From contig CAVWEH010000002.1 of assembly GCA_963753975.1 (NCBI GenBank), positions 576,001-640,000 on the forward strand: 64,000 nt of DNA, written 5' to 3'. Positions 3,324-62,280 of the stretch are shown here, one piece after another. The stretch is from an uncultured delta proteobacterium. GTDB lineage: Bacteria; Desulfobacterota; Syntrophia; Syntrophales; Smithellaceae. Within the stretch, counting starts at the first letter, position 1. The number at the start of each line of letters is the position of its first letter. Below the pieces are notes generated by a model. The model was not told the DNA's origin, did not search any database, and saw only the letters and a program-made list of their open reading frames with translations. The position numbers were made by a program, and so were the translations under genes.

Positions 3324-3512
3324 CACGGGTATGAACTCCAGAGATAGTTGCGGAGTATCATACCCTCCGCTTCGCGGGATTGTTTCCAATCTCGATGCAT
3401 CGTGATTGGATAATTCGACCTGCAAGCTTCAGCGCACTCCGTTTCTGAAACTTGGGTCTCATTACAATTTACCAATTCCGCTACGCTTCGCTTTCGTAAT
3501 TGGAGTTTCACA
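3324..3512 (-). repeat. Composite hairpin repeat element, copy R1 (2 core units plus tail modules, both conserved ends)
   Basis: Minus strand: tgtgaaactc-caattacga-aagcgaagcgta-gcggaattg-gtaaattgt | aatgagaccc-aagtttcag-aaacggagtgcg-ctgaagctt-gcaggtcgaatt | hairpin | atcccgcgaagcggagggt ... ggagttcatacccgtg. Confidence 0.9.
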
Positions 3513-4007
3513 ATGATCCGCGCCGGAATTATAACGGTAAGCGACCGTAGTTCTCAGGGTATCCGTGAAGATGCCGGCGGCCCTGTCCTTGCCGCCGTGC
3601 TTGCGGATGCCAAGATAGAAGTTTGTAAATCTCTCATCATTCCGGATGAAAAAAGCGAAATAAAAGATGCAATAATAAAATTCGCTGATAAAGAAAAACT
3701 TGATTTGATTTTAACCACCGGCGGCACCGGCGTCAGCCCCCGCGATGTAACTCCGGATGCGACAGGGGAAGTAATCGACAAACAAATCCCCGGCATGGCC
3801 GAAGCCATGCGGCATCAAAGTATGAATATCACTCCCTATGCCATGATTTCCCGTGCCATAGCGGGAATCCGTGGACGCTGTCTGATAATTAATCTCCCCG
3901 GAAGCCCGAAAGGAGCCAAAGAAAACCTGGCTATAATTCTGCCCGCGTTGAAACATGCCGTCGAAAAAATTAAAGGAGACGACACCGAATGCGCGAGCCC
4001 CATCTAG
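3513..4007 (+). CDS. mog: Molybdopterin adenylyltransferase MogA/MoaB
   Basis: TVSDR, TTGGTG, RDVTP and NLPGSPKG motifs. Confidence 0.9.
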   Translation: MIRAGIITVSDRSSQGIREDAGGPVLAAVLADAKIEVCKSLIIPDEKSEIKDAIIKFADKEKLDLILTTGGTGVSPRDVTPDATGEVIDKQIPGMAEAMRHQSMNITPYAMISRAIAGIRGRCLIINLPGSPKGAKENLAIILPALKHAVEKIKGDDTECASPI

Positions 4008-4063
4008 TCTCATTTTGTGCCATGGGATTTGCCGCTAATTTTCGTAAATCATCAAAGATTTTT

Positions 4064-4549
4064 TTATAACCCGTCATGAAAATTGACCAGGTGTTTTTCC
4101 AGGAATTGCAGAGCATTGCGCTGATGCGTCCCCGTCCAATAAATATTGTGACAGGAAGGACACTGATTATACCGGGTGCAATTTTCAAAGACATATGCAG
4201 GCACTTGATTGCGCACTTCTTCAGCGGAAACCGAATGAAGCTTTTTGTTGCATCTAAGGCATATTGTAAACATCTTTTGCTTATCTATCTTCAGAGAAAA
4301 TTTATCGATGATATCATTTAGTTGATGGACGATATCATTGTCTTTAATCAGATATAAACACCCGGAAAACTGACGCTCCACCATGTCTATTCTTTTTGTC
4401 AGCACAATTCTTCCTTCGGCGGCGGCTAAACGCAGCATTTTCCTTCCGGCTTCTTGCGGAAAAACTACGGTATCGTAACCTAAAAGCCGTAACCATTTAG
4501 CCAGCTTTCCCAAGGCAGCGTCGACAATAAATTGGGGATTGTCAAACAT
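4064..4549 (-). CDS. Mut7-C RNase domain (PIN-like) protein with zinc ribbon
   Basis: F-VD--LGKLAKWLRLLGYDT, CxxC...CxxC-x-x-IYW-GTH. Confidence 0.85.
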   Translation of the reverse strand: MFDNPQFIVDAALGKLAKWLRLLGYDTVVFPQEAGRKMLRLAAAEGRIVLTKRIDMVERQFSGCLYLIKDNDIVHQLNDIIDKFSLKIDKQKMFTICLRCNKKLHSVSAEEVRNQVPAYVFENCTRYNQCPSCHNIYWTGTHQRNALQFLEKHLVNFHDGL

Positions 4550-4564
4550 TTTTTGGAGACATTA

Positions 4565-4867
4565 TTATGACATTTTGGATTCATGAACGACCGGCGGAGG
4601 CTCGTCGGCACGGAGTTCCTTACGCAAATCGCGAATAGTTCTGTTCAAACGACTAATTGTGCGGTTCAAACGAAAACGCTCCACTATCCCCCATAAACTC
4701 GTAATTATTACTCCGGCAAGAAGAGAGCCAAAAATCAGCATATAAGCCGGCACAACAACATCCAAATGCTTGTAATATTGCAGATGTACCGGCGCCGAAT
4801 TCAATTGGGAAAAAGTCACGCTAAAAATAATAAATATTAAAGTTAAAATCAAATAAATTACCTTCAT
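4565..4867 (-). CDS. LapA-family (lipopolysaccharide assembly protein A-like) membrane protein
   Basis: Two transmembrane segments with a conserved N, followed by a basic coiled-coil tail; start placed at ATG 4867. Confidence 0.65.
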   Translation of the reverse strand: MKVIYLILTLIFIIFSVTFSQLNSAPVHLQYYKHLDVVVPAYMLIFGSLLAGVIITSLWGIVERFRLNRTISRLNRTIRDLRKELRADEPPPVVHESKMS

Positions 4868-4871
4868 CGCA

Positions 4872-5357
4872 TCATACCTCCTGATGATATTTTCTAAAGA
4901 GAGGAGCAAGATTAGCCGCTGTCGTAGCCACATCCTCCGGTATTACACGCACATTGCCAACCACACTCATAAAATTAGTATCGCCTTCCCAACGCGGAAC
5001 TACATGAAGGTGAATATGATCCTCAATGCCGGCTCCGGCTGCCTTGCCTATGTTCATGCCGACGTTGAATCCGGCCGGATTCATCGCTTCCCGGAGAGCT
5101 TTAAATGACGTTTCTAAAAGGTTGAAGATTTCTTTTCTTTCTTCGGGAGACAGATCCGAATATTCACCTGTATGCCGATGGGGAATAATCATCAAATGAC
5201 CGCTTATGTAAGGATATCTGTTCATCATCACAAAAGTGTATTTGGCTTTATAAAGGACATAATCATCACACTTGACTAAACATTTACAGAAAATGCACTC
5301 TTTAGTCTTTTTGCTTTTAATATATTCCATTCTCCAGGGCGCAAAAATTGTTTCCAT
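4872..5357 (-). CDS. HIT family hydrolase (Ap4A hydrolase-like)
   Basis: APWRMEYI, CIFC, NRYPY, GAG..HIHLHVVPRW. Confidence 0.9.
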   Translation of the reverse strand: METIFAPWRMEYIKSKKTKECIFCKCLVKCDDYVLYKAKYTFVMMNRYPYISGHLMIIPHRHTGEYSDLSPEERKEIFNLLETSFKALREAMNPAGFNVGMNIGKAAGAGIEDHIHLHVVPRWEGDTNFMSVVGNVRVIPEDVATTAANLAPLFRKYHQEV

Positions 5358-5375
5358 ATATTTTAAACCCGCTAA

Positions 5376-5868
5376 TTAGATGTTAATTATCCTACCTGCC
5401 ACTTCCTTGTCAATTTCTAATATGCCGATAGTCTTGGAAGACGCAAAATGCCGGTCTGCGGCCGAGCCGGGATTAAAGAACAGCACATTACCCTTTTTAC
5501 AATTTGCCGGTTTATGCGTATGTCCATAAACGATACAATTCGCATCACTAAATCTGGTCAATATTTTTTCCTCCATGCCCCGGGGAGATCCCCAGCCGTG
5601 AATCAAAGGCGAACTTAAATCCTTTTATTTCAAAAAGCAAATACTCAGGCAATTTTTCTTTAACGGAAAGATTATCCATGTTGCCGCATACCGCCAAGAC
5701 TTCTTTCCCCGCGAAAATTTCCAAAACACTAAGATCGACCAGATCTCCGGCATGAAGAATCATATCTACATCGCCGAAATGTTCAGCGATGCATCTTCTC
5801 ACATTATCATCATAACCTGTCAGATGAGTGTCGGAAATGACCCCAACCTTTACCTTCTTCTCTTCCAT
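5376..5868 (-). CDS. Metallophosphoesterase YfcE/MJ0936 family, split by a +1 frameshift near 5605
   Basis: ISDTH, HAGD and GNMD in ORF 5548-5874; HG, GHTH and NPGS in ORF 5376-5606; removing one T joins them. Confidence 0.85.
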
Positions 5869-5922
5869 AATCAACTGCCAAAGTATTAGCGATAAGAAAT
5901 AAAAAAAACAAGTTTTATTTAT

Positions 5923-6000
5923 AATGAAACTCAGATTTTATAAGCGTAGCGCAGTAAAATCTGCAAGTTGAATTATCCTGGGTGCGAAGCACATCAGGAT
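5923..6000 (+). repeat. Hairpin repeat copy R2 (1 core unit plus GAA-loop tail hairpin)
   Basis: aatgaaactc-agattttat-aagcgtagcgca-gtaaaatct-gcaagttgaatt then atcctg-ggtgc-gaa-gcac-at-caggat. Confidence 0.9.
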
Positions 6001-6102
6001 ATCTTTGAAGTAAAGCTCTACATAGCGAAACGGGATCATCAACCACTATATCCAATTAACAGGAAAAGCTTTTAATTTGACTTTAGTATTAAGTAAAGTT
6101 AA

Positions 6103-8121
<2,019 letters not shown>

Positions 8122-8155
8122 TACCGCTTCGTTTTCAAGGAATAACGAGGCGGTA
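8122..8155 (+). terminator. Hairpin immediately after the ligA stop (possible terminator or stabiliser)
   Basis: taccgcttcgtt ... aacgaggcggta inverted repeat; no U-tract. Confidence 0.4.
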
Positions 8156-8287
8156 GTGAAACTCAAATCTCAGGAACGCAGTGAACTGGAATTAGTTAGT
8201 TGTAATGAGATCCAAACCTCAGAAACGAAGTGCACTGAAGTTTGTTGATCGAATTATCCAATAGCCTTTAGCTATGGGGAACTATCC
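8155..8287 (+). repeat. Hairpin repeat copy R3 (2 core units plus atccaatagcc tail hairpin)
   Basis: agtgaaactc-aaatctcag-gaacgcagtgaa-ctggaatta-gttagttgt | aatgagatcc-aaacctcag-aaacgaagtgca-ctgaagttt-gttgatcgaatt | atccaatagcctttagctatgggg. Confidence 0.9.
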
Positions 8288-8360
8288 AGCATGAGCTGTG
8301 GCTAGGAGGGAGCTGACGACGAAGCCAACAAAGTTAGCCGAAGGAAGCGATGCGAGATTT

Positions 8361-8633
8361 ATGAAAAGAGTTCATGTTTATGTGAGCGGCAGAGTGCAGG
8401 GAGTATTTTTCCGTGCGGAAACTCAGCGCACGGCGATGAATTTTAATCTCACCGGCTGGGTGAAAAATACAGCCGACGGCCGGGTGGAAGCTGTTTTTGA
8501 AGGCAAAGATGAAAACGTCGATAAAATGATAGCCTGGTCCCATACCGGCCCGCCGCATGCCCGAGTTCAAGAAGTTATCACTAATGAAGAATCATACACG
8601 GGCGAATTTAGGAATTTCAGTATTAAATATTGA
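8361..8633 (+). CDS. acyP: Acylphosphatase
   Basis: VSGRVQGVFFR, GWVKN, GPP motifs; start placed at ATG 8361. Confidence 0.92.
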   Translation: MKRVHVYVSGRVQGVFFRAETQRTAMNFNLTGWVKNTADGRVEAVFEGKDENVDKMIAWSHTGPPHARVQEVITNEESYTGEFRNFSIKY

Positions 8634-8950
8634 CAAATACAATTTTGTCATTACCCGGCACACTTGATTTGACGGGCAGTGTTCAATTAAATCATATCTC
8701 CGTTATTGTTAACACCTACTAATATTTAGTGGCGGGCAGTATCTAGAATTGAGGATTAGGGTGGAAAGAGAGTAGCGGCAAGGATCAGGACACGTAAATC
8801 TTCGTACCAGCGAAGCTAATTCAACTACAAGAACAAATACTGACTAACGACAGAGAGGTTAACTCAATTCTCAATGACCATGCCCGGGATAGTGATCTGA
8901 GAGTCAATAGATTTGTCGAAGATGGGTTGGGGCATTGATCTTTCTAACCT

Positions 8951-9364
8951 TCAGACAGATTTCATCTTAAAAAGCTTTTTATTGACGGAGACCACCGGAC
9001 AAGGAGCCTCCAAAATAATATGTTGGGCGTTGGAACCAAAAATCAGTTTCCCCACCTTGGATTTCTTTTCAATTCCAATGAAAATCTGGTCTACATTATT
9101 ATCCTTGGCAAACGTGACTATATCTTCCCCCGGAAAAAGGCCACGAATCAGCAGGCGGGTATCGCAGAGAATGCCTTCCTTTATAATAGAAGCTTTTAAG
9201 TTCTCCAAATTACTTCCCATGGTTAAATCATCAACTTCCTTTGCGCTTTCCATTGAGTGGACAATATAAAGGGTGGCGTTAAAAAGTTTAGCATTTTTCT
9301 TGGCCAAAGCTAAGACAGCTTTATCCATTTCAGTCCCTTCGGCATACGCAACTAAGAATTTCAT
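8951..9364 (-). CDS. Universal stress protein (UspA family)
   Basis: 137 aa ending GKLIFGSNAQHIILEAPCPVVSV. Confidence 0.88.
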   Translation of the reverse strand: MKFLVAYAEGTEMDKAVLALAKKNAKLFNATLYIVHSMESAKEVDDLTMGSNLENLKASIIKEGILCDTRLLIRGLFPGEDIVTFAKDNNVDQIFIGIEKKSKVGKLIFGSNAQHIILEAPCPVVSVNKKLFKMKSV

Positions 9365-9601
9365 CTTGACCCCCTGTAGCAGATGTTAACTGTCGATTTA
9401 ATGATGCTGTACTTACTTTAAATTAGAATATAGAGAAATCAGTTATCTATGTCAACGAATTTCTAACGAACCAAAAAGCATCATATGCCATGATATTATA
9501 AACATTATTTCATCAATGTTTGAGCGTTTTCTTTTCATATAAAATCCTCTTGCTTTTTACCCTAAAAAACATACTGTAGTCTGTCTGGAAGGAGAAACGA
9601 T

Positions 9602-10111
9602 ATGGGTGCTATTAAAGATATTGTTGATCTTATTACTCAACTCAATAGTAGTATACTTAAGATTCAGACGTTGATACTTACGGTTCAAGAGGAAGATGCA
9701 GCACTGGTGTCTGAAAACCTTGATTTGAAAAAAAGGATATTTGAACTTGAAAAAAAGTATTCTACATTTGAGGAAAAGCGTTCTGCACTTCAAGAAAAAT
9801 CTTCTGCTGAAAATTTGCAAGATAAATACGAATTTATCAAAGAAGAAGAAAAGCATTCTGTGCTTCAAGAAAAATCTTCTGCTGAAAATTTGCAGGATAA
9901 ATACGAATTTATTAAAGAATTTGGCATCTATAAATCTAAAGAATCTGGAAATTATTTTTGCGCCTCCTGTTTAATGAAAAATATTGAATCTCCTTTAACA
10001 CAGAGACGAACCGGGTGGCGATGTGAATCAAAAGGTTGTGGTAAGTTTTATACCAACCCAGCATATCAAACGCAAAAACGTAAACCTCGTAAGTATTTTC
10101 AATGGAGTTAA
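9602..10111 (+). CDS. Hypothetical coiled-coil protein with C-terminal Cys cluster and a 25-aa tandem duplication
   Basis: GGAG RBS, AT-rich, CASC...CESKGC. Confidence 0.6.
   Translation: MGAIKDIVDLITQLNSSILKIQTLILTVQEEDAALVSENLDLKKRIFELEKKYSTFEEKRSALQEKSSAENLQDKYEFIKEEEKHSVLQEKSSAENLQDKYEFIKEFGIYKSKESGNYFCASCLMKNIESPLTQRRTGWRCESKGCGKFYTNPAYQTQKRKPRKYFQWS
9770..9919 (+). repeat. In-frame tandem duplication, 2 x 75 nt
   Basis: 9770-9844 and 9845-9919 encode EEKRSALQEKSSAENLQDKYEFIKE and EEKHSVLQEKSSAENLQDKYEFIKE. Confidence 0.9.
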
Positions 10112-10300
10112 TAAAAAGAGCATGGTTTTTTTATTCTCCTGTATCAAGTAAACTATCCCTGAAATTTGGTTTCGTATGTCAATTAAATATTGATTACCAT
10201 TTGAAAGAAGGTATGTATGTGAAAAATTCTAAATGCTCACTTGCAGGAAGAAGTGAATAAGAACAATCCTTATATCTGCCGTCAATTTCGACAAGCCACA

Positions 10301-11482: not shown

Positions 11483-11517
11483 AAATCCTGAGCTCCTTCG
11501 CGACAGCCGTGGAAAAA

Positions 11518-11835: not shown

Positions 11836-11866
11836 AAAAAAATCTCCTTATTCGTATTATCTTCAA

Positions 11867-11890
11867 GCGGCCGGATTTTACTCCGGCCGC
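11867..11890 (-). terminator. GC-rich hairpin
   Basis: gcggccgga-ttttac-tccggccgc perfect 9-bp stem between the SPFH gene and the LiaF-like gene. Confidence 0.4.
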
Positions 11891-11897
11891 ATTAATT

Positions 11898-12122
11898 GTT
11901 GAAACTCCAATTTCAAAAACGTAGCGCATAATCTAATAACCTGAAGGTCGCAAGATGTCACACGTTGAAATTGGTAAATTGTAATGAGACCCAAGCTTCG
12001 GAAACAAAGTGCACCGAAGCTTGCAGGTCGAATTAATGAAACTCAGATATTACAAACGCAGTGCAGTAATATCTGTTAGCTGAATTAATCCCATAGCCAA
12101 AGGCTATTGGGGCTATCCCGCA
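11898..12122 (+). repeat. Hairpin repeat copy R4 (3 tandem core units, the first with a 36-nt insert, plus tail)
   Basis: Units at 11898-11982, 11983-12034 (aagcttcgg/ccgaagctt stem) and 12035-12086 (agatattac/gtaatatct stem); tail cccatagccaaaggctattgggg. Confidence 0.92.
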
Positions 12123-12130
12123 AAGTTGGC

Positions 12131-26451: not shown

Positions 26452-27343
26452 TCAGCTCCGGGGATGATATTTATGATGTATTTCTCTTAACCTTTCCCGT
26501 GTTATGTGCGTGTAAATTTGCGTCGTGGAAATGTCGGCATGTCCCAGCATTACCTGCACGATGCGCAAATCCGCGCCGCCTTCCAGCAAATGCGAGGCAA
26601 AAGAATGGCGAAAAGTGTGCGGATGAACCTTCTTTTGCAATCCGGCTTTTTTAGCATAACGGACGACTATTTTCCAAAAACCCTGCCGGGTAAATTTTCC
26701 TCCGAAACGGTTTAAAAACAATACATCCGTGCTTTTTTTTTGCATCAATTGCGGCCGGGCCTTATCTATATAAACTCTTACGCAATCGTAAGCGGTTTTG
26801 CCGACAGGAACAATTCGTTCCTTACTGCCTTTGCCCATAACAGTCACGAAGCCCACCTGCCAATTAATGCTGTTCATCGTCAAATTAATCAACTCCGAAA
26901 CACGAATCCCCGTTGCGTACAGAAGCTCCAGCATGGCGCTGTCCCGGAGCGCCAAAGGCCGTCTGGTCTCCCGGCTGAGATAAAATAACATTCATTTCTT
27001 CCTTGCTTATCGTATCGGGAAGCCGCATCCATACTTTGGCCAGTTCTATGTTGGCTAGCGGCGTCTCATCGATTTTCTTTTCTTGCAGAAGGAATTTGTA
27101 AAACCCCCGCATAGCCGCGAGCGACCGGTTCATGGAATTAGCCGATAATCCCTCTTTCTTAATCTGCGTTAAATATTCAATAATTACCTCCGGTGTAACT
27201 CCCGCAAGCTCAGTTATGCCTTTTTCCCCCTCAACAAACCGAAGAAACCGGCGCAAATCACGGCCATAGGCTTCCAGCGTATTTTGGGCAATGCCCCGTT
27301 CAATTAACAGATAACGGAAATACTTCTCCAGCAATTCCTGCAT
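26452..27343 (-). CDS. xerD: Site-specific tyrosine recombinase XerD, split by a +1 frameshift near 26960
   Basis: NTLEAY-RDL SAM-like domain; LYATGIRVSEL, GKGSKER, HTFRHSFASHLL, LGHADISTTQIY, HPR. Confidence 0.9.
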
Positions 27344-27457
27344 GGAACTTTTTAACGCAAATACGCCGGCGAAGCAAAGTTTTTTTATTGACTTATTTGC
27401 AAATCTCGTAAAAATGATAATGGAGAAATTAAAGAAAATAACTCTAGGAGATTTCTC

Positions 27458-27904
27458 ATGAAAAAAATCATTATTGCTTCCGATCACGGCGCCGTAGCTC
27501 TAAAAGCCGAAATTGTATCCTTTTTAAAAGCGAAAAATTGCGCGGTAAAAGACATGGGCGTAAATAGCGAAGATTCGGTGGATTATCCCGATATCGCTCT
27601 CGCCGCATGCAACGAATTTAAGACCGGAGGGTATGATTTCGGCATTTTGCTTTGCGGCACGGGAATAGGAATGTCCATCATCGCCAACAAAATCAAGGGT
27701 ATCCGCTGCGCACAAGTTTTCGACCTTTTTACCGCCGAGATGGCCAAAGCTCACAATAACGCCAATTTTATCGCTTTCGGCGGCAGAGTAAAATATTCCA
27801 TACCGGTTACGGAGATGATCGAAAAATTCATGAATTCAAATTTTGCGGGCGAGAGGCATGAAAGAAGAGTCGCCAAAATAATGGATATAGAAAACAAGTG
27901 TTAG
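27458..27904 (+). CDS. rpiB: Ribose-5-phosphate isomerase B
   Basis: SDHG, DYPD, CGTGIG, HNNAN, RH-RR. Confidence 0.93.
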   Translation: MKKIIIASDHGAVALKAEIVSFLKAKNCAVKDMGVNSEDSVDYPDIALAACNEFKTGGYDFGILLCGTGIGMSIIANKIKGIRCAQVFDLFTAEMAKAHNNANFIAFGGRVKYSIPVTEMIEKFMNSNFAGERHERRVAKIMDIENKC

Positions 27905-28794: not shown

Positions 28795-29813
28795 AAAAAC
28801 AGCGCCAGCATTGCCTTTACTGCGGTCGTGCCACCATCAAGAAATATGAAGACAACGTCCGGCGGGACTTCTGCCCCTCCTGCCAGTCGTTTTTTTATGA
28901 AAATCCACTGCCGGTGGTTTCCGCGATTCTCGATTCTTCACGCCGGATACTTTTAGTTAAGCGCAGCCGGCCTCCATTTAAAGGTATGTGGTGCCTGCCG
29001 ACAGGCTTTGCCGAAGCGGGAGAAAGCATCGAAGATGCGGCCCTGCGCGAATTGCAGGAAGAAACCGGCATTAAAGGCCGGATTGTAAAACTCTTGGATG
29101 TTGATTCCTACAAGAGCCGCTTTTACGGCGATTTGCTTTTTTTGACCTTTGTCGTCGAAGAAGCAGGCGGAAAACTTGCCGCCGGCGGTGATAGTGAGCA
29201 AGCCCGGTTTTGGCCGGTAAACAAACTGCCGCCTTTGGCCTTCCCTCCCAATAAACGCGCCTTGGATGCCTATATAAAAAGCAAGAGGGATTACTGGGCG
29301 ATATTCGATTCTATCGAACACGCGAATGAAAAAACACCTTCGCCCAAGATAACAAAAAATCCTTTAACACGAAGGCTCGTCAATTTCATCCTGAAGAATA
29401 AGGAAGACATCATCAATCAATGGCTGGAAGACGTGGCGGCAAATCCGTCCACTACCGAATATCGTAGTGTGGAGAGCCGCACACTATATAATATCTGCGA
29501 CAGGATACTTTCCCAGATAACGCTCTGGCTGGGCGGCCTGCACGATGTTGACAGGATTAGGAGTTTCTACACCAAACTGGGCCGGGAAAGAAAAAAAGCC
29601 GGTTTTAAAATCAGTGAAGCGTTGAGCGCGCTCAGCCTCATCCGCAAGCACATTTGGACGTTCGCGCTAGCGCAGGATGCCCTCTCGAAAAATCTGGAGC
29701 TTTACATGACTTTTGAACTGCAACGGCAAATGACCATCTTCTTCGATCTGGCTACTTTTTATCTAACTCGCGGGTATGAAGAAAATAATGAGACTCAAGT
29801 TTCAGAAACATAG
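28791..29813 (+). CDS. NUDIX hydrolase with N-terminal Zn ribbon and C-terminal helical (RsbRD-N-like) domain
   Basis: CLYCG/CPSC, YENPLP, Nudix box GFAEAGESIEDAALRELQEETG; C-terminal LGRERKKAGF--SE. Confidence 0.8.
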   Translation: MKKQRQHCLYCGRATIKKYEDNVRRDFCPSCQSFFYENPLPVVSAILDSSRRILLVKRSRPPFKGMWCLPTGFAEAGESIEDAALRELQEETGIKGRIVKLLDVDSYKSRFYGDLLFLTFVVEEAGGKLAAGGDSEQARFWPVNKLPPLAFPPNKRALDAYIKSKRDYWAIFDSIEHANEKTPSPKITKNPLTRRLVNFILKNKEDIINQWLEDVAANPSTTEYRSVESRTLYNICDRILSQITLWLGGLHDVDRIRSFYTKLGRERKKAGFKISEALSALSLIRKHIWTFALAQDALSKNLELYMTFELQRQMTIFFDLATFYLTRGYEENNETQVSET

Positions 29814-29954
29814 TGAACTGAAACTTGTAAGCCGAATTAATGAAACTCAAATATTACAAACGCAGTGCAGTAATATTTGCTAGTTGAATTATCCCGCTGT
29901 AGGCGGAGGAGATCGAAGATATCCGCGGTATCCCGCAGGCGGAGCCTGTCGGGA
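29787..29954 (+). repeat. Hairpin repeat copy R5 (2 core units plus GC-rich tail)
   Basis: aatgagactc-aagtttcag-aaacatagtgaa-ctgaaactt-gtaagccgaatt | aatgaaactc-aaatattac-aaacgcagtgca-gtaatattt-gctagttgaatt | atcccgc... Confidence 0.92.
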
Positions 29955-29986
29955 CAAGATTCAATAATGCCCTTAGGAGGGTTGTT

Positions 29987-30629
29987 ATGGAATTCAAAGA
30001 TGCAATGAAACAAAGACGAGCCGTGAACTATTTTGATCCTACCAAAGACGTAACCGATGCCCAGATCAAAGATATAATAGAAACCGCTTCGCTCGCGCCT
30101 TCCGGATTTAATCTTCAGCCGTGGAACGTAATCGTTGTCAAGGATAAGGCAAAAAAAGAAATCCTGAGAAAGGTCGCGTGGGATCAACCCAAGGTAACTG
30201 AAGCGCCTGTTGTCCTGATTGTTCTGGGCGATCGTGATGGCTGGAAAAATGGCCACAGCACTTTTGAGAAGGATTTCGTCGAAATGGTTAAAATCGGCGC
30301 AATGAAAAAGGACCAGCATGACTGGTTTGCCGGTGCGGCAAAATCTATTTATGGATTAAACCCTGATCAGAAAATGGCGTTTGCCTGCAAAAATGCCGGT
30401 TTTTTCGCCATGTCGCTGATGCTCGCCGCCAAGAATGCCGGACTCGACTTCTCATCCGATGGACGGACTTGATGTTGAAGGCGTTAAGAAGGCTTTTAAC
30501 ATACCCGATCAATACTGGGTTCCTCTTTTACTGGCAATCGGTCATTTCGATAAAAGCAAAACTCTTCTTCCGGCAAAATGGAGAAAAAGCTATAATGAGA
30601 TAGTAGTGAGTTTTAATGACACTCGCTGA
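29987..30629 (+). CDS. Nitroreductase family protein, split by a +1 frameshift near 30450
   Basis: RRAV, APSGFNLQPW, then HPMDG...LLAIG in the next frame. Confidence 0.85.
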
Positions 30630-30702
30630 AAACGAGTATCGCGAAGTTTGAAGCGTAAGTGGAATTATCCCAGGAGCGTAGCGACGCGGGATTAATGACA
30701 CC
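30615..30702 (+). repeat. Hairpin repeat copy R6 (1 core unit plus tail)
   Basis: aatgacactc-gctgaaaac-gagtatcgcgaa-gtttgaagc-gtaagtggaatt | atcccaggagcgtagcgacgcgggat. Confidence 0.8.
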
Positions 30703-53723: not shown

Positions 53724-53737
53724 AAGGAGAAGCCTAG

Positions 53738-54283
53738 ATGGCAAAAGTCAAGATAGCGACAGACTGGTTAGCAGGCTGCGCCGGATGTCATATGTCGTTA
53801 CTGGATATTGATGAGCGTATTGTAGGGCTATCGGAATTGGTTGAATTTACGTCAAGTCCGATAACAGACCTCAAGCATCCGCCTAAATCAGGCGTAACCG
53901 TGGGTATTCTGGAAGGAGCTATCTGCAACACTCACAATATTGAAGTCGCCAAGCAAATGCGCGAACGCTGCGATATCCTCATTGCAGTTGGCGACTGCGC
54001 AACATTCGGCGGTGTTCCGGCCATGCGTAATCTGGTGGGTACTGATGTGGCCTTAAAGCGTGCGTATCTGGAAACGGAAAGCACTGTTGATGGAGTTATT
54101 CCGGATTCTTTGGAGCTGGGAAGGCCTCTGGATTTTGTCGTGGGAGTTGACAAAATCGTCAAAGTTGATCTGTTCATTCCGGGTTGTCCGCCGAGGGCGG
54201 ATGCATTTTATTATGCCTTAACGGAGTTGCTTGCGGGTCGCACACCGGTAATATTGCCGCCCGAAGTATTTACATATGATTAG
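53738..54283 (+). CDS. [NiFe]-hydrogenase small subunit (HydS/HoxY-like)
   Basis: WLAGCAGCHMS, GDCA--GGVP, IPGCPP; proximal cluster only. Confidence 0.88.
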   Translation: MAKVKIATDWLAGCAGCHMSLLDIDERIVGLSELVEFTSSPITDLKHPPKSGVTVGILEGAICNTHNIEVAKQMRERCDILIAVGDCATFGGVPAMRNLVGTDVALKRAYLETESTVDGVIPDSLELGRPLDFVVGVDKIVKVDLFIPGCPPRADAFYYALTELLAGRTPVILPPEVFTYD

Positions 54284-54295
54284 AGGAGAACATTT

Positions 54296-55724: not shown

Positions 55725-55725
55725 T

Positions 55726-55784
55726 AACGGTTATGAACTCCAAAACAAGTTTTGGAAACCACTTCCCGGAATTGGAGTTTCACG
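55726..55784 (-). repeat. Minimal repeat element R7 (left and right ends only)
   Basis: Minus strand cgtgaaactccaattccgg ... tccaaaacttgttttggagttcataaccgt. Confidence 0.75.
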
Positions 55785-55804
55785 AATAAATACAAATAAT
55801 TTTC

Positions 55805-55842
55805 CAGGCGGATAAGTGTGATGCTTACCCGCCTGTTTTTTT
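55805..55842 (+). terminator. Intrinsic terminator after hydL
   Basis: caggcggataag...cttacccgcctg followed by T7. Confidence 0.7.
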
Positions 55843-55851
55843 CTGAAAAAT

Positions 55852-56068
55852 CACGGGTATGAACCTCAAAGCAAGCAAGCTTTGGAAACAAATTCCGCAG
55901 CAAGCTGCGGGGTATTAAACCCTCCGCTTCGCGGGATAATTTCCAATAGCCTTTGGCTATTGGATAGTTCGACTTACAAATTTCATTCTGCTGCGCTTAT
56001 GAAATTTGAGTCTCACTACAACTAACGCTTCCTATAGTCAGCGAGTCTCATTAAATTGGAGTTTCACC
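55852..56068 (-). repeat. Composite repeat element R8 (truncated, short and full core units, all tail modules)
   Basis: Minus strand agtgagactc-aaatttcat-aagcgcagcaga-atgaaattt-gtaagtcgaact | atccaatagccaaaggctattgga | atcccgcgaagcggagggt | ccgcagcttgctgcgg ... ttcatacccgtg. Confidence 0.9.
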
Positions 56069-56074
56069 AATAAA

Positions 56075-56569
56075 ATGGATTCCAAAACTATTATCATTGG
56101 ATATGGCAATATAGACCGCGCAGACGACGGCGTTGCCTTTGCCGTAATAAATGAGCTGCGCCGTCAACTGGGCCAGAAAATGCTGGAAGAGGGTGATACC
56201 GGTTTGGACGAGCTAAATTCCGAAAATGATTCAATTTTTCTATCCCAGCTGGTACCGGAAATTATGGAACTGCTCACGGGCTATAATAGAATAATGTTTG
56301 TTGATGCTCATGTTGGTGCTGATACGGAAGACTTCAACTGTTCACCGGTTCTGGCACAATACACTTCTTCTTCATTTACCCATCATATGACGCCGTCCAC
56401 ACTTTTGGCATTTCTCCAGACTATGTATCAGTGCGAACCGGAAGCGCATTTAATCTCCATACGCGGTTACGATTTTGATTTTAAGAGAACCCTTTCGCCT
56501 AAGGTGCGGGCGCTTGTGCAACCGGCAGTGAAGGCCATTTTGAAATTGATGAATCAATCACGGGTATGA
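56075..56569 (+). CDS. Hydrogenase maturation protease
   Basis: IIGYGN-DR-DDG, FVDA, THH; start placed at ATG 56075. Confidence 0.85.
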   Translation: MDSKTIIIGYGNIDRADDGVAFAVINELRRQLGQKMLEEGDTGLDELNSENDSIFLSQLVPEIMELLTGYNRIMFVDAHVGADTEDFNCSPVLAQYTSSSFTHHMTPSTLLAFLQTMYQCEPEAHLISIRGYDFDFKRTLSPKVRALVQPAVKAILKLMNQSRV

Positions 56570-56654
56570 ACCACAAGGTAAAGTTTGGAGGCCAATTCTA
56601 AAGCCCGCTGCAGGGTACTTATACGGGATCAATTCAACTAACAGACTTTACTGC
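56559..56654 (-). repeat. Degenerate repeat element R9
   Basis: Minus strand gca-gtaaagtct-gttagttgaatt-gatcccg ... ttcatacccgtg. Confidence 0.7.
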
Positions 56655-56682
56655 TCTGAGCGAAAATGTCTTTAATATAAAA

Positions 56683-56946
56683 TCAACATTTATAAGGATA
56701 GAAATGGCTATGGCAATACGATCCCGGATCACTTTGCGTCAACTCAACTTCTACTGAACATTGTGCCAGTATTTGGCCGGATATTGCTTTATAGTCAGGT
56801 AGTTTCTCCTCTAGTCTTTTGCAGTCCATGCAAATTGCTTCATGATCATAACAGGACAAAATTCTTTCGTCACGGAGACTTAAACTTTTATGGCATCTAA
56901 AACATTCGATTGCACACATAATTTTTTGTTTCCAGTCATCTTTCAT
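56683..56946 (-). CDS. Small Cys/His-rich hypothetical protein
   Basis: CFRC, RILS-YDH--ICMDC, YC-SHF-P--C; AAGGAG RBS. Confidence 0.65.
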   Translation of the reverse strand: MKDDWKQKIMCAIECFRCHKSLSLRDERILSCYDHEAICMDCKRLEEKLPDYKAISGQILAQCSVEVELTQSDPGSYCHSHFYPYKC

Positions 56947-57196
56947 TTTTTGCTCCTTTCAGTTCTTCTAAGAATATTGAAAAATAAAGCCCGACCTATA
57001 AAATTGCCTCTTAATTTAATGTTCAATGAATACCTTGTCAAGAAGCAGGGAAATAAGCCCCTGCATACTTGACAAATTATCTTGATGCGCTACCAGTCAA
57101 CTTGTAATTAAAAAATATTTCTGTATTTCTGACTTTTCTGTTTGACATAAATACGAAAGTTTAATATAGAGAAAAAAATTATCAAGGAGGTTTCTT

Positions 57197-57760
57197 ATGT
57201 CTGACAATTTTGCTAATCCGGCTCCACTTGGTTTGATGGGTTTTGGAATGACTACCGTTCTTTTAAACATTCATAATGCCGGCTTGTCCGGAATTAGCGC
57301 TGTTATTATGGCAATGGGTATTTTCTATGGGGGAATTGCCCAGATTATCGCAGGCCGTATGGAATTTAAAAAAGGAAACACGTTTGGTACCACCGCCTTC
57401 ACATCTTACGGACTCTTCTGGTTGACGCTTGTGTTTCTCGTTTATTTCAATGGGAAATTCGATATGCCCGTCAACCAGGTGGGATTCATGGCCTGGTATT
57501 TTTTCATGTGGGGGCTCTTTACATTTTTTATGTGGATCGGTACCTGGAAGATCAATCGAGGACTTCAGGTTGTCTTTCTGACGCTGACCATCCTGTTCTG
57601 GATGCTTGCGGCACGTGACGCGTTCGGCTGGACCGGAACATGGGCGATTGTAACCGGCTACGAAGGTATTTTCTGCGGCGCTTCGGCCATTTACTGTGCC
57701 ATGGCGCAGGTGCTCAATGAAAACTTCAAAAGAGTAGTCTTGCCGCTGGGCCAGAAATAG
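57197..57760 (+). CDS. satP: Succinate-acetate transporter, GPR1/FUN34/YaaH family
   Basis: ANPAPLGLMGFGMTT, YGG-AQ, NTFG-TAF-SYG-FW. Confidence 0.93.
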   Translation: MSDNFANPAPLGLMGFGMTTVLLNIHNAGLSGISAVIMAMGIFYGGIAQIIAGRMEFKKGNTFGTTAFTSYGLFWLTLVFLVYFNGKFDMPVNQVGFMAWYFFMWGLFTFFMWIGTWKINRGLQVVFLTLTILFWMLAARDAFGWTGTWAIVTGYEGIFCGASAIYCAMAQVLNENFKRVVLPLGQK

Positions 57761-57961
57761 TTTTAATGCCAATTCGCTTTGAATGTCCCGCCATAAGTGC
57801 GGAAATTCCCGGTAAGGCCAAGGATGTATTCGGAACATACACCTTTGCTTTTTCTCGGACGACGGCGCTAGCGGTTGTGGGGCGGGCGCGGGTTTGGCTT
57901 CCTTGAACCGCCGAAAAAGCATAAACACAATTGCAATTCTGATGGACACTGATTTTGAAGT

Positions 57962-57999
57962 AAAAAAGACTCTCTCGTGATGCCGGCGAGGGAGTCTTT
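57962..57999 (-). terminator. Intrinsic terminator (possibly bidirectional) between convergent genes
   Basis: aaagactctctcg...cgagggagtcttt with an A6 run on the left. Confidence 0.7.
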
Positions 58000-58083
58000 C
58001 CTTGTTGGAATTATCAATGATTTTTCTTTAATGCACGATCTTTGAAGTGCTCAAGACAGATAATATATACTAAAATTTCCAAA

Positions 58084-58851
58084 TTACATTTGTTTAAAAA
58101 GATATAGGTAGTTTCGGCTCACGGTGAGAGATTCTGGTCTCTTTCTGAGTTTTATAACTCCCCTACCTGTAAGCGACCGACTGATATTTTCAATTCTGGA
58201 TACGTTTACAATAGTTCCCCGATGAATCTGCCAGAATTGCTGAGGATCGAGTTCGCCAGATAGTTCTTTGATACTCTTTTTAATTAAAGATTCTCCCTGA
58301 GCCGTCATCACCAGGGTATATTTATCTTCGGCCTGAAAATAATCAATCTCTTCAACCGGTATCAAGCGGATATTATCTTTGTGTTGCGTTTTGATCCAGC
58401 GCAGATAATTAGCCTTGGCATTTCCCTGCAGGTCAGTAAGAACACGCGTAATCATTTCGGCAAGACCATCCGGCGGTTCCGGAGAAGCTTGAAGTTGTTT
58501 TTTTAAGCGCTGTATTGTTTGCGTCAATCTTTTTTTTGTTACCGGCTTGACTAGATAATCAACCGCTTCGCGCTCAAAGGCCTCTACAGCATATTGATCA
58601 AACGCGGTGACAAATACAATCCTGCAGATACTCGCAATTTTTTCGGCTACTTTAAGACCGGAAAGACCGGGCATTTTGATGTCCAGGAAAGCTACTTGCG
58701 GACGGCAAGATTCAACAAGCTTCAAGGCTTCTTTTCCGTTAGCCGCTTCGCCGCAAATCTCCAAATCCGGCCAGGTTTCGGCAAGCATTGTCCTGAGGTA
58801 TCCTCTCAACTCCTTTTCATCATCGGCAATGATGGCTTTATAAGTCATCAA
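58084..58851 (-). CDS. LytTR-family response regulator
   Basis: REC domain plus LytTR (DKYT, FWQIHR-TIVN, VSR-Y). Confidence 0.92.
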   Translation of the reverse strand: MMTYKAIIADDEKELRGYLRTMLAETWPDLEICGEAANGKEALKLVESCRPQVAFLDIKMPGLSGLKVAEKIASICRIVFVTAFDQYAVEAFEREAVDYLVKPVTKKRLTQTIQRLKKQLQASPEPPDGLAEMITRVLTDLQGNAKANYLRWIKTQHKDNIRLIPVEEIDYFQAEDKYTLVMTAQGESLIKKSIKELSGELDPQQFWQIHRGTIVNVSRIENISRSLTGRGVIKLRKRPESLTVSRNYLYLFKQM

Positions 58852-59908
58852 TCGGCACCTCGATTGTCACCCTGACACCATGGGGCTTGTTTTCTTCTAT
58901 CTTCAAGCGGCCTTTTTCTCCGAAGAGCAGGGCCAGGCGTTCGCGTACATTGGCAATGCCTACACCGGATTTATTAAAATCAGAGAATCCCAGACCGGTG
59001 TCCGCAACTTCGATTCTCATCAGGCTATTTTCCTCGGTCGCCCTGATCCCGATTTCACCGCCGTCAACTTTAGGTTCCAGCCCATGCTTTACGGCATTTT
59101 CCACCAGCGGCTGAAGCAACATTGGCGGAAAGGATTGTTGCCGCATATTATTCGGAACGTCAATCTTAAAATTTAATCGCTCATCCATTCTTATCTTTTG
59201 AATATTAAGATAAGCCTTGATCATCGCTATTTCCTGATCCAGTGTGGTTTTCTCCGGTAATGTTCGAGATAAAGAGATACGCAGATATTTAGTTAAATCC
59301 AGAAGCATTGATTTGCCCTTTGCCGGTTGTGTTTCGATCAGACTGACGATATTGGAAAGAGTATTGAAAAGGAAATGAGGCTCAATTTGAGCTTGCAGCA
59401 TTCGGAGATTAGCTAAAAGTGATTCTTTTTCCATAGCCATGCGGCTGGTTTTTTCCTGCTCGATCATTTCATTGCGATGCCGTAATCTGGATTTGGTAAT
59501 GAAAAAATATAAAGCGGCACCGCTGAACATAACTGCGGAAAGCATTATTTGCAGCATATGTTTCATTGGCAAATTCAAGGCGATAGAAAACATCTTCTTC
59601 AGAATAAAAAAACCGATATTTAGTCCGATAATTGAACCAGCGATGACGCCTGTAAATATAATTAAAATTAACGTCAGCCAACGCCGCGGCTTGAATACCC
59701 GGAACATAAGAAGGAAAATAGAACAGATTGTCAGGCCAAACGATTGCGATATGATAAAACTGACAATGAAGCGCGTGCTGGGACTGGACAAGGTCAATAC
59801 CAGTGCAATTGCCGTTGATATGACTATGGTATAAAAAAAATCTATTATAATATGCTTACCAGTCAAATAATATTCCGGATTAATTTCGTTTACACATTTT
59901 TGTTCCAT
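58838..59908 (-). CDS. LytS/YehU-type sensor histidine kinase
   Basis: LQAQIEPHFLFNTL, LQPLVENAVKHG, G-G--N--ERL. Confidence 0.92.
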   Translation of the reverse strand: MEQKCVNEINPEYYLTGKHIIIDFFYTIVISTAIALVLTLSSPSTRFIVSFIISQSFGLTICSIFLLMFRVFKPRRWLTLILIIFTGVIAGSIIGLNIGFFILKKMFSIALNLPMKHMLQIMLSAVMFSGAALYFFITKSRLRHRNEMIEQEKTSRMAMEKESLLANLRMLQAQIEPHFLFNTLSNIVSLIETQPAKGKSMLLDLTKYLRISLSRTLPEKTTLDQEIAMIKAYLNIQKIRMDERLNFKIDVPNNMRQQSFPPMLLQPLVENAVKHGLEPKVDGGEIGIRATEENSLMRIEVADTGLGFSDFNKSGVGIANVRERLALLFGEKGRLKIEENKPHGVRVTIEVPIDDL

Positions 59909-59949
59909 GATAATCGCCTAAAGCTCATTTTTTAAAGTTCCACAATTTT

Positions 59950-61311
59950 TTACAGAGTATATTTTATGCCGACCATAACATAATAATTCAGGAGATTCAT
60001 GAGGCTTCCCCCAAACTCCGTATCCCTGTCGCCACCACTGACAACACCAAGAGAGAACAATTCAAAATGATTGCCCAGAGAATATGTCATATATGCCGAG
60101 GCTTGACAAGAACCATCATCCAGATTCTGAGTCCAGCGCATGAAGATCTCTAATTTGTTTTTGATATTAGTCTGCGTATATTGCAGCATTGCATAATTCT
60201 TTCGCAGAAATCTCAGCCCCGGATTTATTGTCTGTCCCAGAGTCATCAGTCCTAATGCTCCGGGCATTCCGCCCATATTAAAAGCCGTGGCGCCATTGCG
60301 CCTTAATGTGTAGTACATTTCGGCTTCGTCACTGTTATAGCCGGGTGCGTTATAAGCATATTCCAGCGAAAAAGTGCCGCTTGCTTCCAGAGTATAGGAA
60401 CTTCCGACTAAAATAATCGGTTTAAGATCAGGATCATCCTCGTGGATTTTTTGCATCGAAGCGCCAAGGGGCGACGACATATCCTTTTGGGGGTATAAGG
60501 CATTGCTCCCTTGAGCTAAGCTCCCTTCGCCATAAAGCAGCACCGAGTCAGAAATAGTCCAGCCTCCAAAAAATCCCAATGTTTTTTTATAATCTTTCTG
60601 AGAGAGAATGATTGAAGCATAATTTTCCCGTCCCGTATAATCGGCTTTTAGAGCGTAAGTTTTTTCAAAGGGGTCGGGACCACCGAGCATGTTGCGTCCC
60701 TCGTCGGTATTAACTATGAAGGATGCTGTCCAGGAACCATAAGGGATCCAGACCACACGGGCAAAATCCATTCCGGGAATTTCCAGGAAGGGATTGCTGC
60801 GGCCGTTATCCTGGAAAAAAGGATTGGAAGGAGAAAAAAGAAAAGAAGGGCCCCATTGCAGATTCTCCCGGCCATAGGATACAAAGAGATTTTCCCTGGC
60901 TTTCAATCGCACGAGCCATTCATTAACATATACATCGCTTTTCCATTGAGTATCGCCACTGCGTGATCCTTCCTGCCAGATGTCGAACTCCAACCTTGCT
61001 CTGGGTTTTGCGGAAAACTCCAATGGCTCCAGGTTCAAGCGCAGATCGGGACGCAATTCGACATTTGCAGTGTAATGCGGCAATTGGAGAAAATTATTGT
61101 CTGGATTTTGAGAGGAATTGGTCGGCTCCTGAACAATTCCATAAGTCATAATTCGCCAATCTGCGGAAAAGCCTTCGTTGAATTTCTGAATAATCGATGG
61201 TTTTGTATCTCCGGAATCATCGGCGCCGGCAACGTGCGGCCACGATCCCCAACCAGCAATCAACAAGAAAATGATTACTGAAAGAATCTTTCTTACACAG
61301 CTTCGTCTCAT
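59950..61311 (-). CDS. Putative outer-membrane beta-barrel protein
   Basis: Signal peptide, GRENLQWG, C-terminal G-KY-L; located in a Lol-like cluster. Confidence 0.6.
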   Translation of the reverse strand: MRRSCVRKILSVIIFLLIAGWGSWPHVAGADDSGDTKPSIIQKFNEGFSADWRIMTYGIVQEPTNSSQNPDNNFLQLPHYTANVELRPDLRLNLEPLEFSAKPRARLEFDIWQEGSRSGDTQWKSDVYVNEWLVRLKARENLFVSYGRENLQWGPSFLFSPSNPFFQDNGRSNPFLEIPGMDFARVVWIPYGSWTASFIVNTDEGRNMLGGPDPFEKTYALKADYTGRENYASIILSQKDYKKTLGFFGGWTISDSVLLYGEGSLAQGSNALYPQKDMSSPLGASMQKIHEDDPDLKPIILVGSSYTLEASGTFSLEYAYNAPGYNSDEAEMYYTLRRNGATAFNMGGMPGALGLMTLGQTINPGLRFLRKNYAMLQYTQTNIKNKLEIFMRWTQNLDDGSCQASAYMTYSLGNHFELFSLGVVSGGDRDTEFGGSLMNLLNYYVMVGIKYTL

Positions 61312-61320
61312 TGGAAAACT

Positions 61321-62086
61321 CTATTTCGTCAGCAGGTTCAGATTGAAAGTGGCATCGGAAACTTTTTTGAGCACAGGTTTGTTATAGTACATGGTCGTTA
61401 CATCTTCTTTTATTATGGCGCTGGTAATAATCATTTTGGAGATAAACTCCCGCGGTTTTTCATTAATTGTGATGCTGTTTTTATATTCGAATGTTGCTGT
61501 TTTAAACATTTTACCGGAAACAGTGTAGAATTCAGCTTTCAGCCCCACGAGACGCTCCTTGGATATCCAGTATTTAATCCGGTCATAAGTAGCTCTGCTA
61601 TCCACCGCTTGTAAGTCCATCAGAAGACAAGCCTCACCGTTCGCTTTACTTTCCGCTGTGTGTATGATTTTGTAATCACCCGCATAGTTAGTGGAGGCAA
61701 TATCGCCATTGGCCGCGCCGCCCATAAGCTTTTGCCGCGGAGAAATGGGAACAGCTTTGGAAAGCCCCGGTTTGGCAAACCACATGTTGCGGTCCTGCAT
61801 CAACAGCTTTTGACCTTTCACATTAGCCGGCGCCAAAGTATCGGCCAGAGAATTATAGCCTCGGGCATATACCCGCAACGTCTCTGTGCTGTTCACGTCC
61901 TCCCTCAATGGAATCAATAGAAATCTCCCACTGGATTCCTTCGGCATTGCCACGGGCTTCATCCGCTTTTTGAAGCATTTCCTTGGGACTCATCTGCGTT
62001 TGGGCAGAGGAAACAGAAAAACTTAGACAATAAATGACTACAAAAATCATTGCCATTAAATATCGCTGTTCGAATCGTGTTTTCAT
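61321..62086 (-). CDS. Outer membrane lipoprotein-sorting (LolA-like) protein, split by a +1 frameshift near 61880
   Basis: Signal peptide; P---KG-K-L, PISPRQKL-G----GDI, TY--I-YWI. Confidence 0.8.
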
Positions 62087-62108
62087 TTTTTTCTCCTATT
62101 TTTTTATT

Positions 62109-62280
62109 TGTGAAACTCCAATTCCGAAAGCGTAGCGTATCGAAATTGGTAAGTTGAATTAATGAAACTCAGATATTACAAGCGCAGTGCAGTTAATATC
62201 TGTAAGCTGAATTAATCCCGCGTGCGAAGCTTAGCGGGGCAATATAATATCCCGCGAAGCGGAGGGTATAATGCCCGTAG
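62109..62280 (+). repeat. Composite repeat element R10 (2 core units plus tail modules)
   Basis: tgtgaaactc-caattccga-aagcgtagcgta-tcgaaattg-gtaagttgaatt | aatgaaactc-agatattac-aagcgcagtgca-gttaatatct-gtaagctgaatt | ... atcccgcgaagcggagggt. Confidence 0.92.

Follow-up and report, generated by a model that had tools for sequence, protein, structure and literature searches.

A 52-nucleotide (nt) bulged hairpin is repeated 15 times in the stretch of DNA analysed here, and it probably serves as one module in a family of small mobile DNA repeats that are lineage-specific, non-coding, non-autonomous, and self-nesting. The stretch, referred to as the window, is 64,000 nt long (G000:C2:576001-640000) and comes from a genome of the Smithellaceae (G000, the source genome; 2.43 Mb, 6 contigs, 95% complete). 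The window genes include EF-G, LigA, sigma-54, and Mvh/Hdr-type hydrogenases. The strand that reads AATGA...GAATT was taken as the unit strand. Compared genomes and loci are designated G0xx and L0xx, respectively; G011 and G013 are the congeners syntenic with the window.

Copies were first defined by a strict pattern (AATGA-N4-C-N30-G-N6-GAATT, at most one mismatch), which matched 8 times in the window against 0.85 expected; 8 matches were reached by none of 100 shuffled sequences. Genome-wide, the pattern gave 72 matches of length 52, and the 9-bp stem was paired in 70 of them. A profile made from 70 genome copies was used in an nhmmer search (E ≤ 1), yielding 225 hits in the genome and, in the window, 13 complete and two partial copies at nine loci: 3412 and 3466 (minus strand), 5923, 8157 and 8204, 11900, 11983 and 12035, 29787 and 29839, 30615, 55968 (minus), 56631 (minus, partial), and 62111 and 62161. 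A reading of the window made earlier from the letters alone (the sequence-only reading) had listed about 14 units at 10 loci, which is near the number of copies and one locus too many; the five 9-bp stem pairs and the five basal 4-bp helices that it quoted were all found in the sequence at the places given for them. A covariance model trained on the 13 window units had at least 140 matches in the source genome, a lower bound, as 150 of 1081 candidates were scored. The exact geometry of the unit was kept by 137 genome units, 132 of them distinct.

In single-sequence folds, the unit starts from a 3-bp AAT/ATT foot, continues with an unpaired tandem GA facing another GA, and then forms a 4-bp helix. 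Above a 2-nt 3' bulge, a C-G pair and the 9-bp stem (10 bp together) carry a 12-nt loop, in which a 2-bp mini-stem encloses three bases. The 10-bp stem and the loop mini-stem were also recovered by the alignment fold, and the geometry that had been described from the sequence was reproduced. In the 13 window units, 94.2% of the paired cells were occupied by pairs, compared with 76.6% in shuffles and 25-39% in slid controls. Changes on both sides were present at 14 of the 19 pairs, and the covariation score was reached by 0 of 500 shuffles; the stem covariation already noted in the sequence is thus strong. Among 46 units from other genomes (42 distinct), 93.5% were paired and double changes were found at 18 of 19 pairs, in an alignment that was fitted to the model and so favours structure.

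The 58 genome units with a perfect upper stem had 26 different 9-nt stem arms, and pairwise identity among them rose from 0.50 for the stem arms to 0.65 for the loop and 0.81 for the foot. The stem is therefore free in sequence yet must pair, and the foot and the loop are held, in agreement with the earlier proposal of a dispersed family selected for structure. The foot is near invariant in the 132 distinct units (T3, G4, and A5 in 130-131, G48 in 128, A49 in 117). The basal helices vary (AACT/AGTT 32, GACT/AGTC 16, GACC/GGTC 11). The loop had the form R-C-G-N-A-G-Y in 69 of the 132 distinct units, most commonly GCGAAGC (21 units). A C-GNA-G loop had been called usual, which applies to the window units (10 of 13), but only to about half of the units genome-wide. 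One subtype has a second tandem G.A inside the stem (e.g., 30615-30666). As a separate observation, GCGAAGC was counted 366 times in the genome, where base composition predicts 199; of the 366 sites, 125 were outside open reading frames (ORFs) of at least 150 aa.

The 52-nt unit belongs, as one module, to composite elements that are 93-393 nt long and have a fixed head and a fixed tail. The unit-centred view of the sequence-only reading was right about the dispersed hairpin, but it missed these larger head-to-tail composites and the nesting of modules in loops. The 225 hits formed 132 islands of 1-6 units, arranged head-to-tail in all but one island, the only one with units on both strands. 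The basic composite (approximately 93-135 nt) consists of a head-type unit (containing GTGAAACTCCAATT), a CCCGC/GCGG hairpin, a GGGTAT/ATACCC hairpin, and a tail ending in CATACCCGTG. In longer composites, extra 52-nt units, ATCC..GGAT mini-hairpins, and an 18-20-nt ATAACCT-type element are placed beside the hairpins or in their loops. The head motif TGAAACTCCAATT, which is the 5' part of the head-type unit, was found in 79 copies and the tail motif in 48; a tail followed 93-393 nt downstream in 30 of the 79 heads. Head (TGAAACTCC) and tail (GGAGTTCA/GGGGTTCA) are weakly inverted relative to each other. Directly 3' of the 137 units, an ATCC..GGAT mini-hairpin was found in 96 cases and another unit in 11, and the base before the unit was T in 104.

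Loop inserts lengthen some units to 63-72 nt. Elsewhere, a whole unit together with its mini-hairpin occupies the loop of a second unit, a nested form of composite that was found at several loci. The ATAACCT-type element (core TAACCTRAAGGTCA, 18-20 nt) is itself a small palindrome with 87 copies in the genome; 39 lie no more than 40 nt behind a unit's 5' half, and 14 are nested in another copy of the same element. The element sits in unit loops at two recurring positions, and the window copy (11928-11963) is a doubled form.

Two further observations concern the modules. In the window, ATCC..GGAT modules of about 25 nt were located at 5975-6000, 8256-8280, 12087-12114, 30667-30692, and 62214-62240, many with a GCGAAGC loop. 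At L054 (G000:C4:307575-307908), at least four near-identical tandem copies with a 94-nt period were found, each made of a unit and a 42-nt GGGTAT/ATACCC hairpin module; their near identity suggests recent local amplification.

The window was syntenic with G011:C4 and G013:C1 at 80-92% nucleotide identity (85-92% for G011). Compared with G011, five of eight comparable window loci were empty (3319-3512, 8122-8357, 29780-29972, 55852-56068, and 56589-56668) and three were filled (5923, the head at 11899, and 30615); compared with G013, two of five were empty. Such gain and loss at orthologous loci fits the mobility that had been proposed. The site 3319-3512 was empty in five congeners (G013, G011, G006, G007, and G003), with 4-6 nt between the EF-G stop codon and the next ATG, and the composite was therefore inserted in the lineage of the source genome. 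At 55849-56068, a single AAT stands at the empty site of G011, and the element at the filled site is flanked by AAT at both ends, a 3-nt direct repeat. The array at 8122-8357 was absent from G011 and G013, which have 9 nt instead.

Other sites were altered in different ways. At 5923, a unit was in the same place in G011 and G013; L011 and L014 had one with a wholly different stem, and L021 was empty. The head and the flanks of 11899-12114 are common to the source genome, G011, and G013, with the content rebuilt differently in each. The site 29787-29954 is taken by 42 unrelated nt in G011, and at least the first unit is present in G013. At 56556-56668, the tail module is common with G011, where 17 nt replace 56589-56668. 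No block syntenic with 62109-62280 was found in G011 or G013, and each of these genomes had two units in the region without a window counterpart. Among relatives, the ligA-acylphosphatase junction was empty in six of nine cases and held other inserts in three; L016 and L021 (Smithella sp. SCADC and D17, from cultured consortia) have a different insert of approximately 70 nt with a GCGAAGC-loop hairpin there. This junction seems to have been hit repeatedly. The family turns over on the time scale of species divergence.

Matches to the covariance model were found in 21 of 24 other Smithellaceae genomes and, among 16 genomes sampled across the remaining families of the order, in one; copy counts in relatives are lower bounds, with up to 143 candidates scored per genome. 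Within one genus, the copies per genome ranged from 0 (G003, 95% complete, 40 contigs) to at least 139 (G011). In an even sample at the order level, 13 of 121 genomes matched (E ≤ 1e-8), and the six outside the family had 1-2 matches each. High copy number is confined to the Smithellaceae.

The GA/GA foot is purine-purine on one strand only, and mismatches on the unit strand were G.A in 66 cases and C.T in 13 (34 and 13 without the internal-G.A subtype). Under DNA parameters, the unit strand gave the more stable fold in 96 of 132 units, the complement in 27, and the two were equal in 9; under RNA parameters, the unit strand was better in 67 of 132. The p-value of this comparison is overstated, as the units are related sequences. 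Folded as single-stranded DNA, the composite 3319-3512 forms a chain of five hairpins (-38.9 kcal/mol, z -6.5; complement -33.9 kcal/mol, z -4.7). GCGNAGC is described as a "mini-hairpin DNA" motif, and d(GNA) loops as very stable in DNA, in PMC13037366 and PMC3201870. The strand data give modest support for a folded single DNA strand. The single-stranded DNA character suggested by the sequence-only reading has some support from the foot, the mismatches, and the DNA folding, but none from the wobble pairs, in which G.T does not exceed A.C.

Placement relative to genes was assessed with crude longest-ORF gene calls. Units were outside called ORFs in 116 of 137 cases, and 19 of the 21 inside were in ORFs of at most 357 nt; these short ORFs were probably created by the arrays themselves. 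Between co-directional genes, 43 units were sense and 40 antisense. The unit sites (83 co-directional, 16 convergent, 17 divergent) matched the background of all spacers (1051, 234, and 263), and the earlier statement that copies lie sense, antisense, and between divergent genes was borne out across the genome. The composites were also considered as 5' untranslated region or ribosome-binding-site elements with the head toward gene starts, and this was rejected: 44 heads were adjacent to gene starts and 35 to gene ends, with no bias. In one observed case (3495-3515), the composite places GGAG 7 nt upstream of the ATG of a MoaB-like gene; as relatives have a spacer of 4-6 nt after the EF-G stop codon, the translation-start context of this operon gene was changed.

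Inverted arrays flank two blocks of ordinary genes, each of about 4 kb, at L052 (G000:C4:275500-282500) and L053 (G000:C4:293500-300800). The arrays are complementary over 99 nt at 98% and over 162 nt at 96%, and are possible substrates for inversion. In the block at L053, a 291-aa Lys/Pro/Ala-rich low-complexity protein with no Pfam family is encoded beside PolX (L053:4582-5457, minus strand); it looks like a histone-H1-like DNA binder.

The window loci differ in their modules. The composite at 3319-3512 (minus strand, approximately 190 nt) separates the stop codon of EF-G from the ATG of the MoaB-like gene. Its head unit occupies 3464-3512, its 52-nt unit 3412-3463, and its small hairpin 3385-3411; hairpins of the CCCGC/GCGG and GGGTAT/ATACCC types and a tail ending in CATACCCGTGG complete it. 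Upstream of ligA, 5923-6000 (plus) consists of a unit (5923-5974) and a small GCGAAGC-loop hairpin (5975-6000). The array at 8122-8357 (plus, approximately 236 nt), between the ligA stop codon and the acylphosphatase ATG, opens with a 34-nt hairpin at 8122-8155; a head-type unit then spans 8155-8203, a 52-nt unit 8204-8255, and a small hairpin 8256-8280, with more sequence beyond. At 11899-12114 (plus), the loop of the head unit (11899-11982) is split by the 36-nt doubled ATAACCT-type element; two units (11983-12034 and 12035-12086) and a small hairpin (12087-12114) follow, and the tail is deleted. Tandem units (29787-29838 and 29839-29890) with small hairpin modules (29891-29929 and 29930-29954) make up 29787-29954 (plus), and the internal-tandem-G.A-subtype unit with a small hairpin (30667-30692) makes up 30615-30692 (plus). 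The composite at 55849-56068 (minus, approximately 217 nt) lies just upstream of a hydrogenase maturation protease gene; between a head and a tail, it holds a truncated unit, a 52-nt unit at 55966-56017, and a small hairpin at 55942-55965. The degenerate composite at 56556-56668 (minus) comprises a tail module in the region 56556-56581 and, at 56631-56660, part of a unit. At the last locus, 62109-62280 (plus), a head-type unit occupies 62109-62160 and a 53-nt unit 62161-62213; small hairpin modules follow at 62214-62240 and 62249-62280.

Two other features of the window were recorded. Two overlapping ORFs (179 and 200 aa) represent an Xer-like tyrosine recombinase (26452-27487, minus strand). 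Where the Pfam match lies, the frame is open for 179 aa in G000 and G013 and for 339 aa in G011, which a frameshift or an indel in the assembly could explain. At 9770-9919, two copies of a 75-nt sequence, 92% identical, form a direct tandem repeat within an ORF (9602-10111) that had no NCBIfam match.

Known RNA families and mobile elements were also searched. The whole window had no Rfam match at gathering thresholds, as the proposal of a new family had required, and two arrays searched at E ≤ 1 gave best E values of 0.059-0.79 (18-20 bits, compared with thresholds of 58-97). The sequence 11899-12114 had no match in plasmid and phage collections. In the literature on Smithella repeats and on nested small dispersed hairpin repeats, no description of the family was found, and as far as searched, the Smithellaceae hairpin repeat family is absent from print.

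Several results weigh against a mobile family with a mover of its own. The nearest copy elsewhere in the genome differed at a median of 5 of 52 positions, and a twin within one mismatch was found for 10 of 137 units; the family is therefore not young. The direct repeat was seen at a single clean empty/filled junction, and none was resolvable at 3319-3512. The G013 version of the 11899-12114 site resembles an exchange between arrays, and part of the spread could be recombination. Stem wobbles (G.T 47, A.C 70; 42 and 64 without the internal-G.A subtype) yield no strand signal. The units agreed with the sign of the local GC skew in 77 cases and disagreed in 60, counts that are not independent, with no convincing replication-strand bias. 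The source genome (95% complete) had no hits to PF01797 (Y1/HUH; 5 candidates scored, with a matching Escherichia coli positive control), PF01548 (IS110 DEDD), PF07282 (TnpB/Cas12f TNB), PF00665 (rve), PF01609 (DDE_Tnp_1), PF13358 (DDE_3), or PF00872 (Transposase_mut); the genomes resemble metagenome-assembled genomes (MAGs), and the unassembled 5% or a plasmid could hold an enzyme. PF01797 was likewise absent from the high-copy genomes G002, G005, G010, and G011 (at least 119-139 units each); two genomes that do carry it, G023 and G018, have 0 units and 1 unit, respectively. Distant head-tail pairs and array-flanked blocks yielded no autonomous copy and held only ordinary genes.

The sequence-only reading had placed a mobilising enzyme (Y1/HUH, IS110, or tyrosine recombinase) elsewhere in the genome, and this was not borne out. 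Besides the lack of Y1 and IS110 genes, the five Phage_integrase hits of the source genome were Xer-like/integrase proteins, and the same kind was found in the low-copy relatives G003 and G007. The single RVT_1 gene was absent from the high-copy genomes G011 and G013. Nor was a transposase or recombinase gene flanked by arrays in the manner of RAYT; the array-flanked 4-kb blocks hold housekeeping genes. The candidates rejected as an autonomous parent were head-tail pairs 3.1-5.8 kb apart (enclosing genes for nitroreductase, Cache, SHOCT, thiolase, response regulator, outer membrane protein, and aldehyde dehydrogenase) and the two 4-kb blocks with their 99-162-nt inverted arrays (hydrolase, Sir2, CBS, outer membrane protein, nitroreductase, PolX, and the Lys/Pro-rich protein).

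Four other explanations were weighed. Chance palindromes or an assembly artefact can practically be dismissed: only the MAG-like nature of the assemblies speaks for an artefact, and it is refuted by the excess of strict matches in the window, the recurrence of the family in more than 20 independent assemblies, and the array flanks, which are orthologous to and syntenic with those of relatives. REP, BIME, and REPIN sequences of Proteobacteria are mobilised by RAYT Y1 transposases, and the units would be REP/REPIN proper if they were RAYT (Y1 HUH) substrates as in Pseudomonas and E. coli. The GA/GA foot and GNA loops would suit an enzyme acting on a single strand, and REPINs are also dispersed intergenic hairpins with compensatory changes (PMC3116915). 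In REPs, an unpaired GTAG or CGTC tag stands at one end of a 20-40 bp palindrome (PMC3733652). The Smithellaceae unit is instead a 52-nt bulged hairpin that ends in AATGA.. and ..GAATT without such a tag, as the sequence-only reading had suggested, and GTAG occurred only as the loop variant GCGTAGC (9 of 132 units). Inverted doublets were lacking, with both strands in 1 of 132 islands, and the distribution of PF01797 runs against copy number. A REP/REPIN identity is very improbable on these grounds and is largely refuted for the source genome.

The units might also be structured RNA, i.e., cis-regulatory, stabilising or terminator hairpins or small RNA modules whose covariation comes from RNA function. 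The strong covariation and the conserved loop would fit, many copies lie within operons and must be co-transcribed (e.g., 3319-3512 and 8122-8357), and the GGAG before the MoaB-like ATG comes from the inserted head. This explanation is improbable, however, given the near equality of sense and antisense units, the lack of enrichment after genes or at convergent sites, and the spread of heads over gene starts and ends. G.U-type pairs were not favoured over A.C, neither strand folded better under RNA parameters, Rfam gave no match, and the loci are dispensable between congeners. It is rather unlikely, finally, that the units are DNA structure sites used by the host for a nucleoid, topoisomerase, or replication protein and spread by recombination or template switching with no dedicated transposase. 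Host binding of hairpins or cruciforms has been proposed for REP/BIME. The lack of hits to the seven transposase families speaks for such sites, as do the mosaic, recombinant look of the arrays (the 11899-12114 site and chimeric outer units), the recurrence of composites as whole blocks, and the tandem amplification with a 94-nt period. Against them, de novo appearance at non-homologous AT-rich stop/start sites needs an integration step, a range from 0 to more than 130 copies within a genus is hard to square with an essential host function, and loop insertion at recurring positions looks targeted.

By analogy, the family appears to work like REP/BIME, BOX, and especially the small dispersed repeats (SDRs) of cyanobacteria, yet it does not qualify as REP/REPIN. 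With REP, BIME, and REPIN it has in common short, high-copy intergenic hairpins, compensatory stem changes, mosaics (BIME), and loops targeted by insertions; it differs in its 52-nt length with a bulge and GA/GA foot, in the lack of a RAYT gene, and in the nesting of modules in each other. Elhai et al. (2008, Genome Res 18:1484) reportedly described SDR1-8 of Nostoc punctiforme and relatives as tiny elements with a shared secondary structure and compensatory mutations, which are said to nest within their own copies in one coherent lineage and for which an RNA intermediate was reportedly proposed. No transposase is known for SDR elements. By description, nesting, compensatory changes, and lineage restriction appear alike. 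A cyanobacterial origin of the window, which the look of the repeats had suggested, was rejected, as HIP1 occurs only 27 times and both genes and relatives are of the Smithellaceae. The hosts differ (cyanobacteria and Desulfobacterota), as do the sizes (21-27 nt in SDRs; modules of 18-20, approximately 25, and 52 nt here), and the sole RVT_1 gene here is not common to high-copy relatives, in contrast to the RNA intermediate proposed for SDRs.

BOX of Streptococcus pneumoniae is built of boxA-boxB(n)-boxC modules, and ERIC and Correia/NEMIS are further small repeats. By description, these resemble the Smithellaceae composites in head, repeated middle, and tail modules, strong secondary structure, intergenic location, and the lack of an encoded protein. 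To our knowledge, insertion of BOX modules into each other's hairpin loops has not been reported. Correia elements carry terminal inverted repeats and duplicate TA at a known target; in the present family, the one clean junction shows AAT. A MITE, as a non-autonomous derivative of an IS, would have terminal inverted repeats that match a resident IS and a target-site duplication; on this point, the composites showed the weak inversion of head and tail and the AAT repeat at one junction, in a genome without an IS of the seven families searched. Integron attC hairpins are read by IntI and IS200/IS605 ends by Y1 TnpA. Both are imperfect bulged hairpins of one strand, conserved in structure and not in sequence, like the present unit. 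Unlike in attC arrays, the units follow each other directly or with mini-hairpins between them, and no ORFs or cassette genes intervene. The R''/R' boxes lack conservation: GTT is missing from the GACC/GGTC subtype. Y1 TnpA is absent here, and the tyrosine recombinases are alike in high- and low-copy genomes. IS1397 inserts into palindromic units, according to the title of a reference cited in PMC3116915.

For the repeat family as a mobile, self-nesting one, the following mode of spread may be proposed. Copies would spread only while the AATGA...GAATT strand can fold, so that the stem must pair and its sequence is free. The GA/GA foot, the bulge, and the GNA-type loop could be recognition features for a trans-acting protein. 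Modules are added beside existing hairpins or into their loops, whole composites are gained and lost between congeners at AT-rich gene boundaries, and arrays may be further reshuffled by recombination between copies. In the source genome, the family may be mostly at rest, given the distance of the nearest copies. More tentatively, and on the doubtful side in our judgement, hairpins would be inserted into hairpin loops without the known single-strand (Y1/HUH, IS110) or common DDE enzymes, as a second independent case, after the SDRs, of tiny self-nesting elements. The mover would then be either a new protein of high-copy Smithellaceae or host replication/repair acting on folded lagging-strand DNA. 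If this is true, the range from 0 to more than 130 copies within a genus would make the mover findable by gene-content comparison.

REP, BIME, BOX, ERIC, and SDR elements are common, and the mode by which most of them spread is unknown. The Smithellaceae family offers covarying structure, loop-targeted nesting, clean empty/filled sites, and this copy-number range without the usual transposases, and these four traits combined open the question of the mover to direct study, both by comparing genomes and by pull-down assays that use an oligonucleotide of 52 nt. In practice, the arrays lie between the stop and start codons of operon genes and have replaced the ribosome-binding region in at least one case. 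They also create spurious ORFs of 80-120 codons and can flank 4-kb blocks as inverted repeats, and these effects bear on the annotation and binning of Smithellaceae MAGs.

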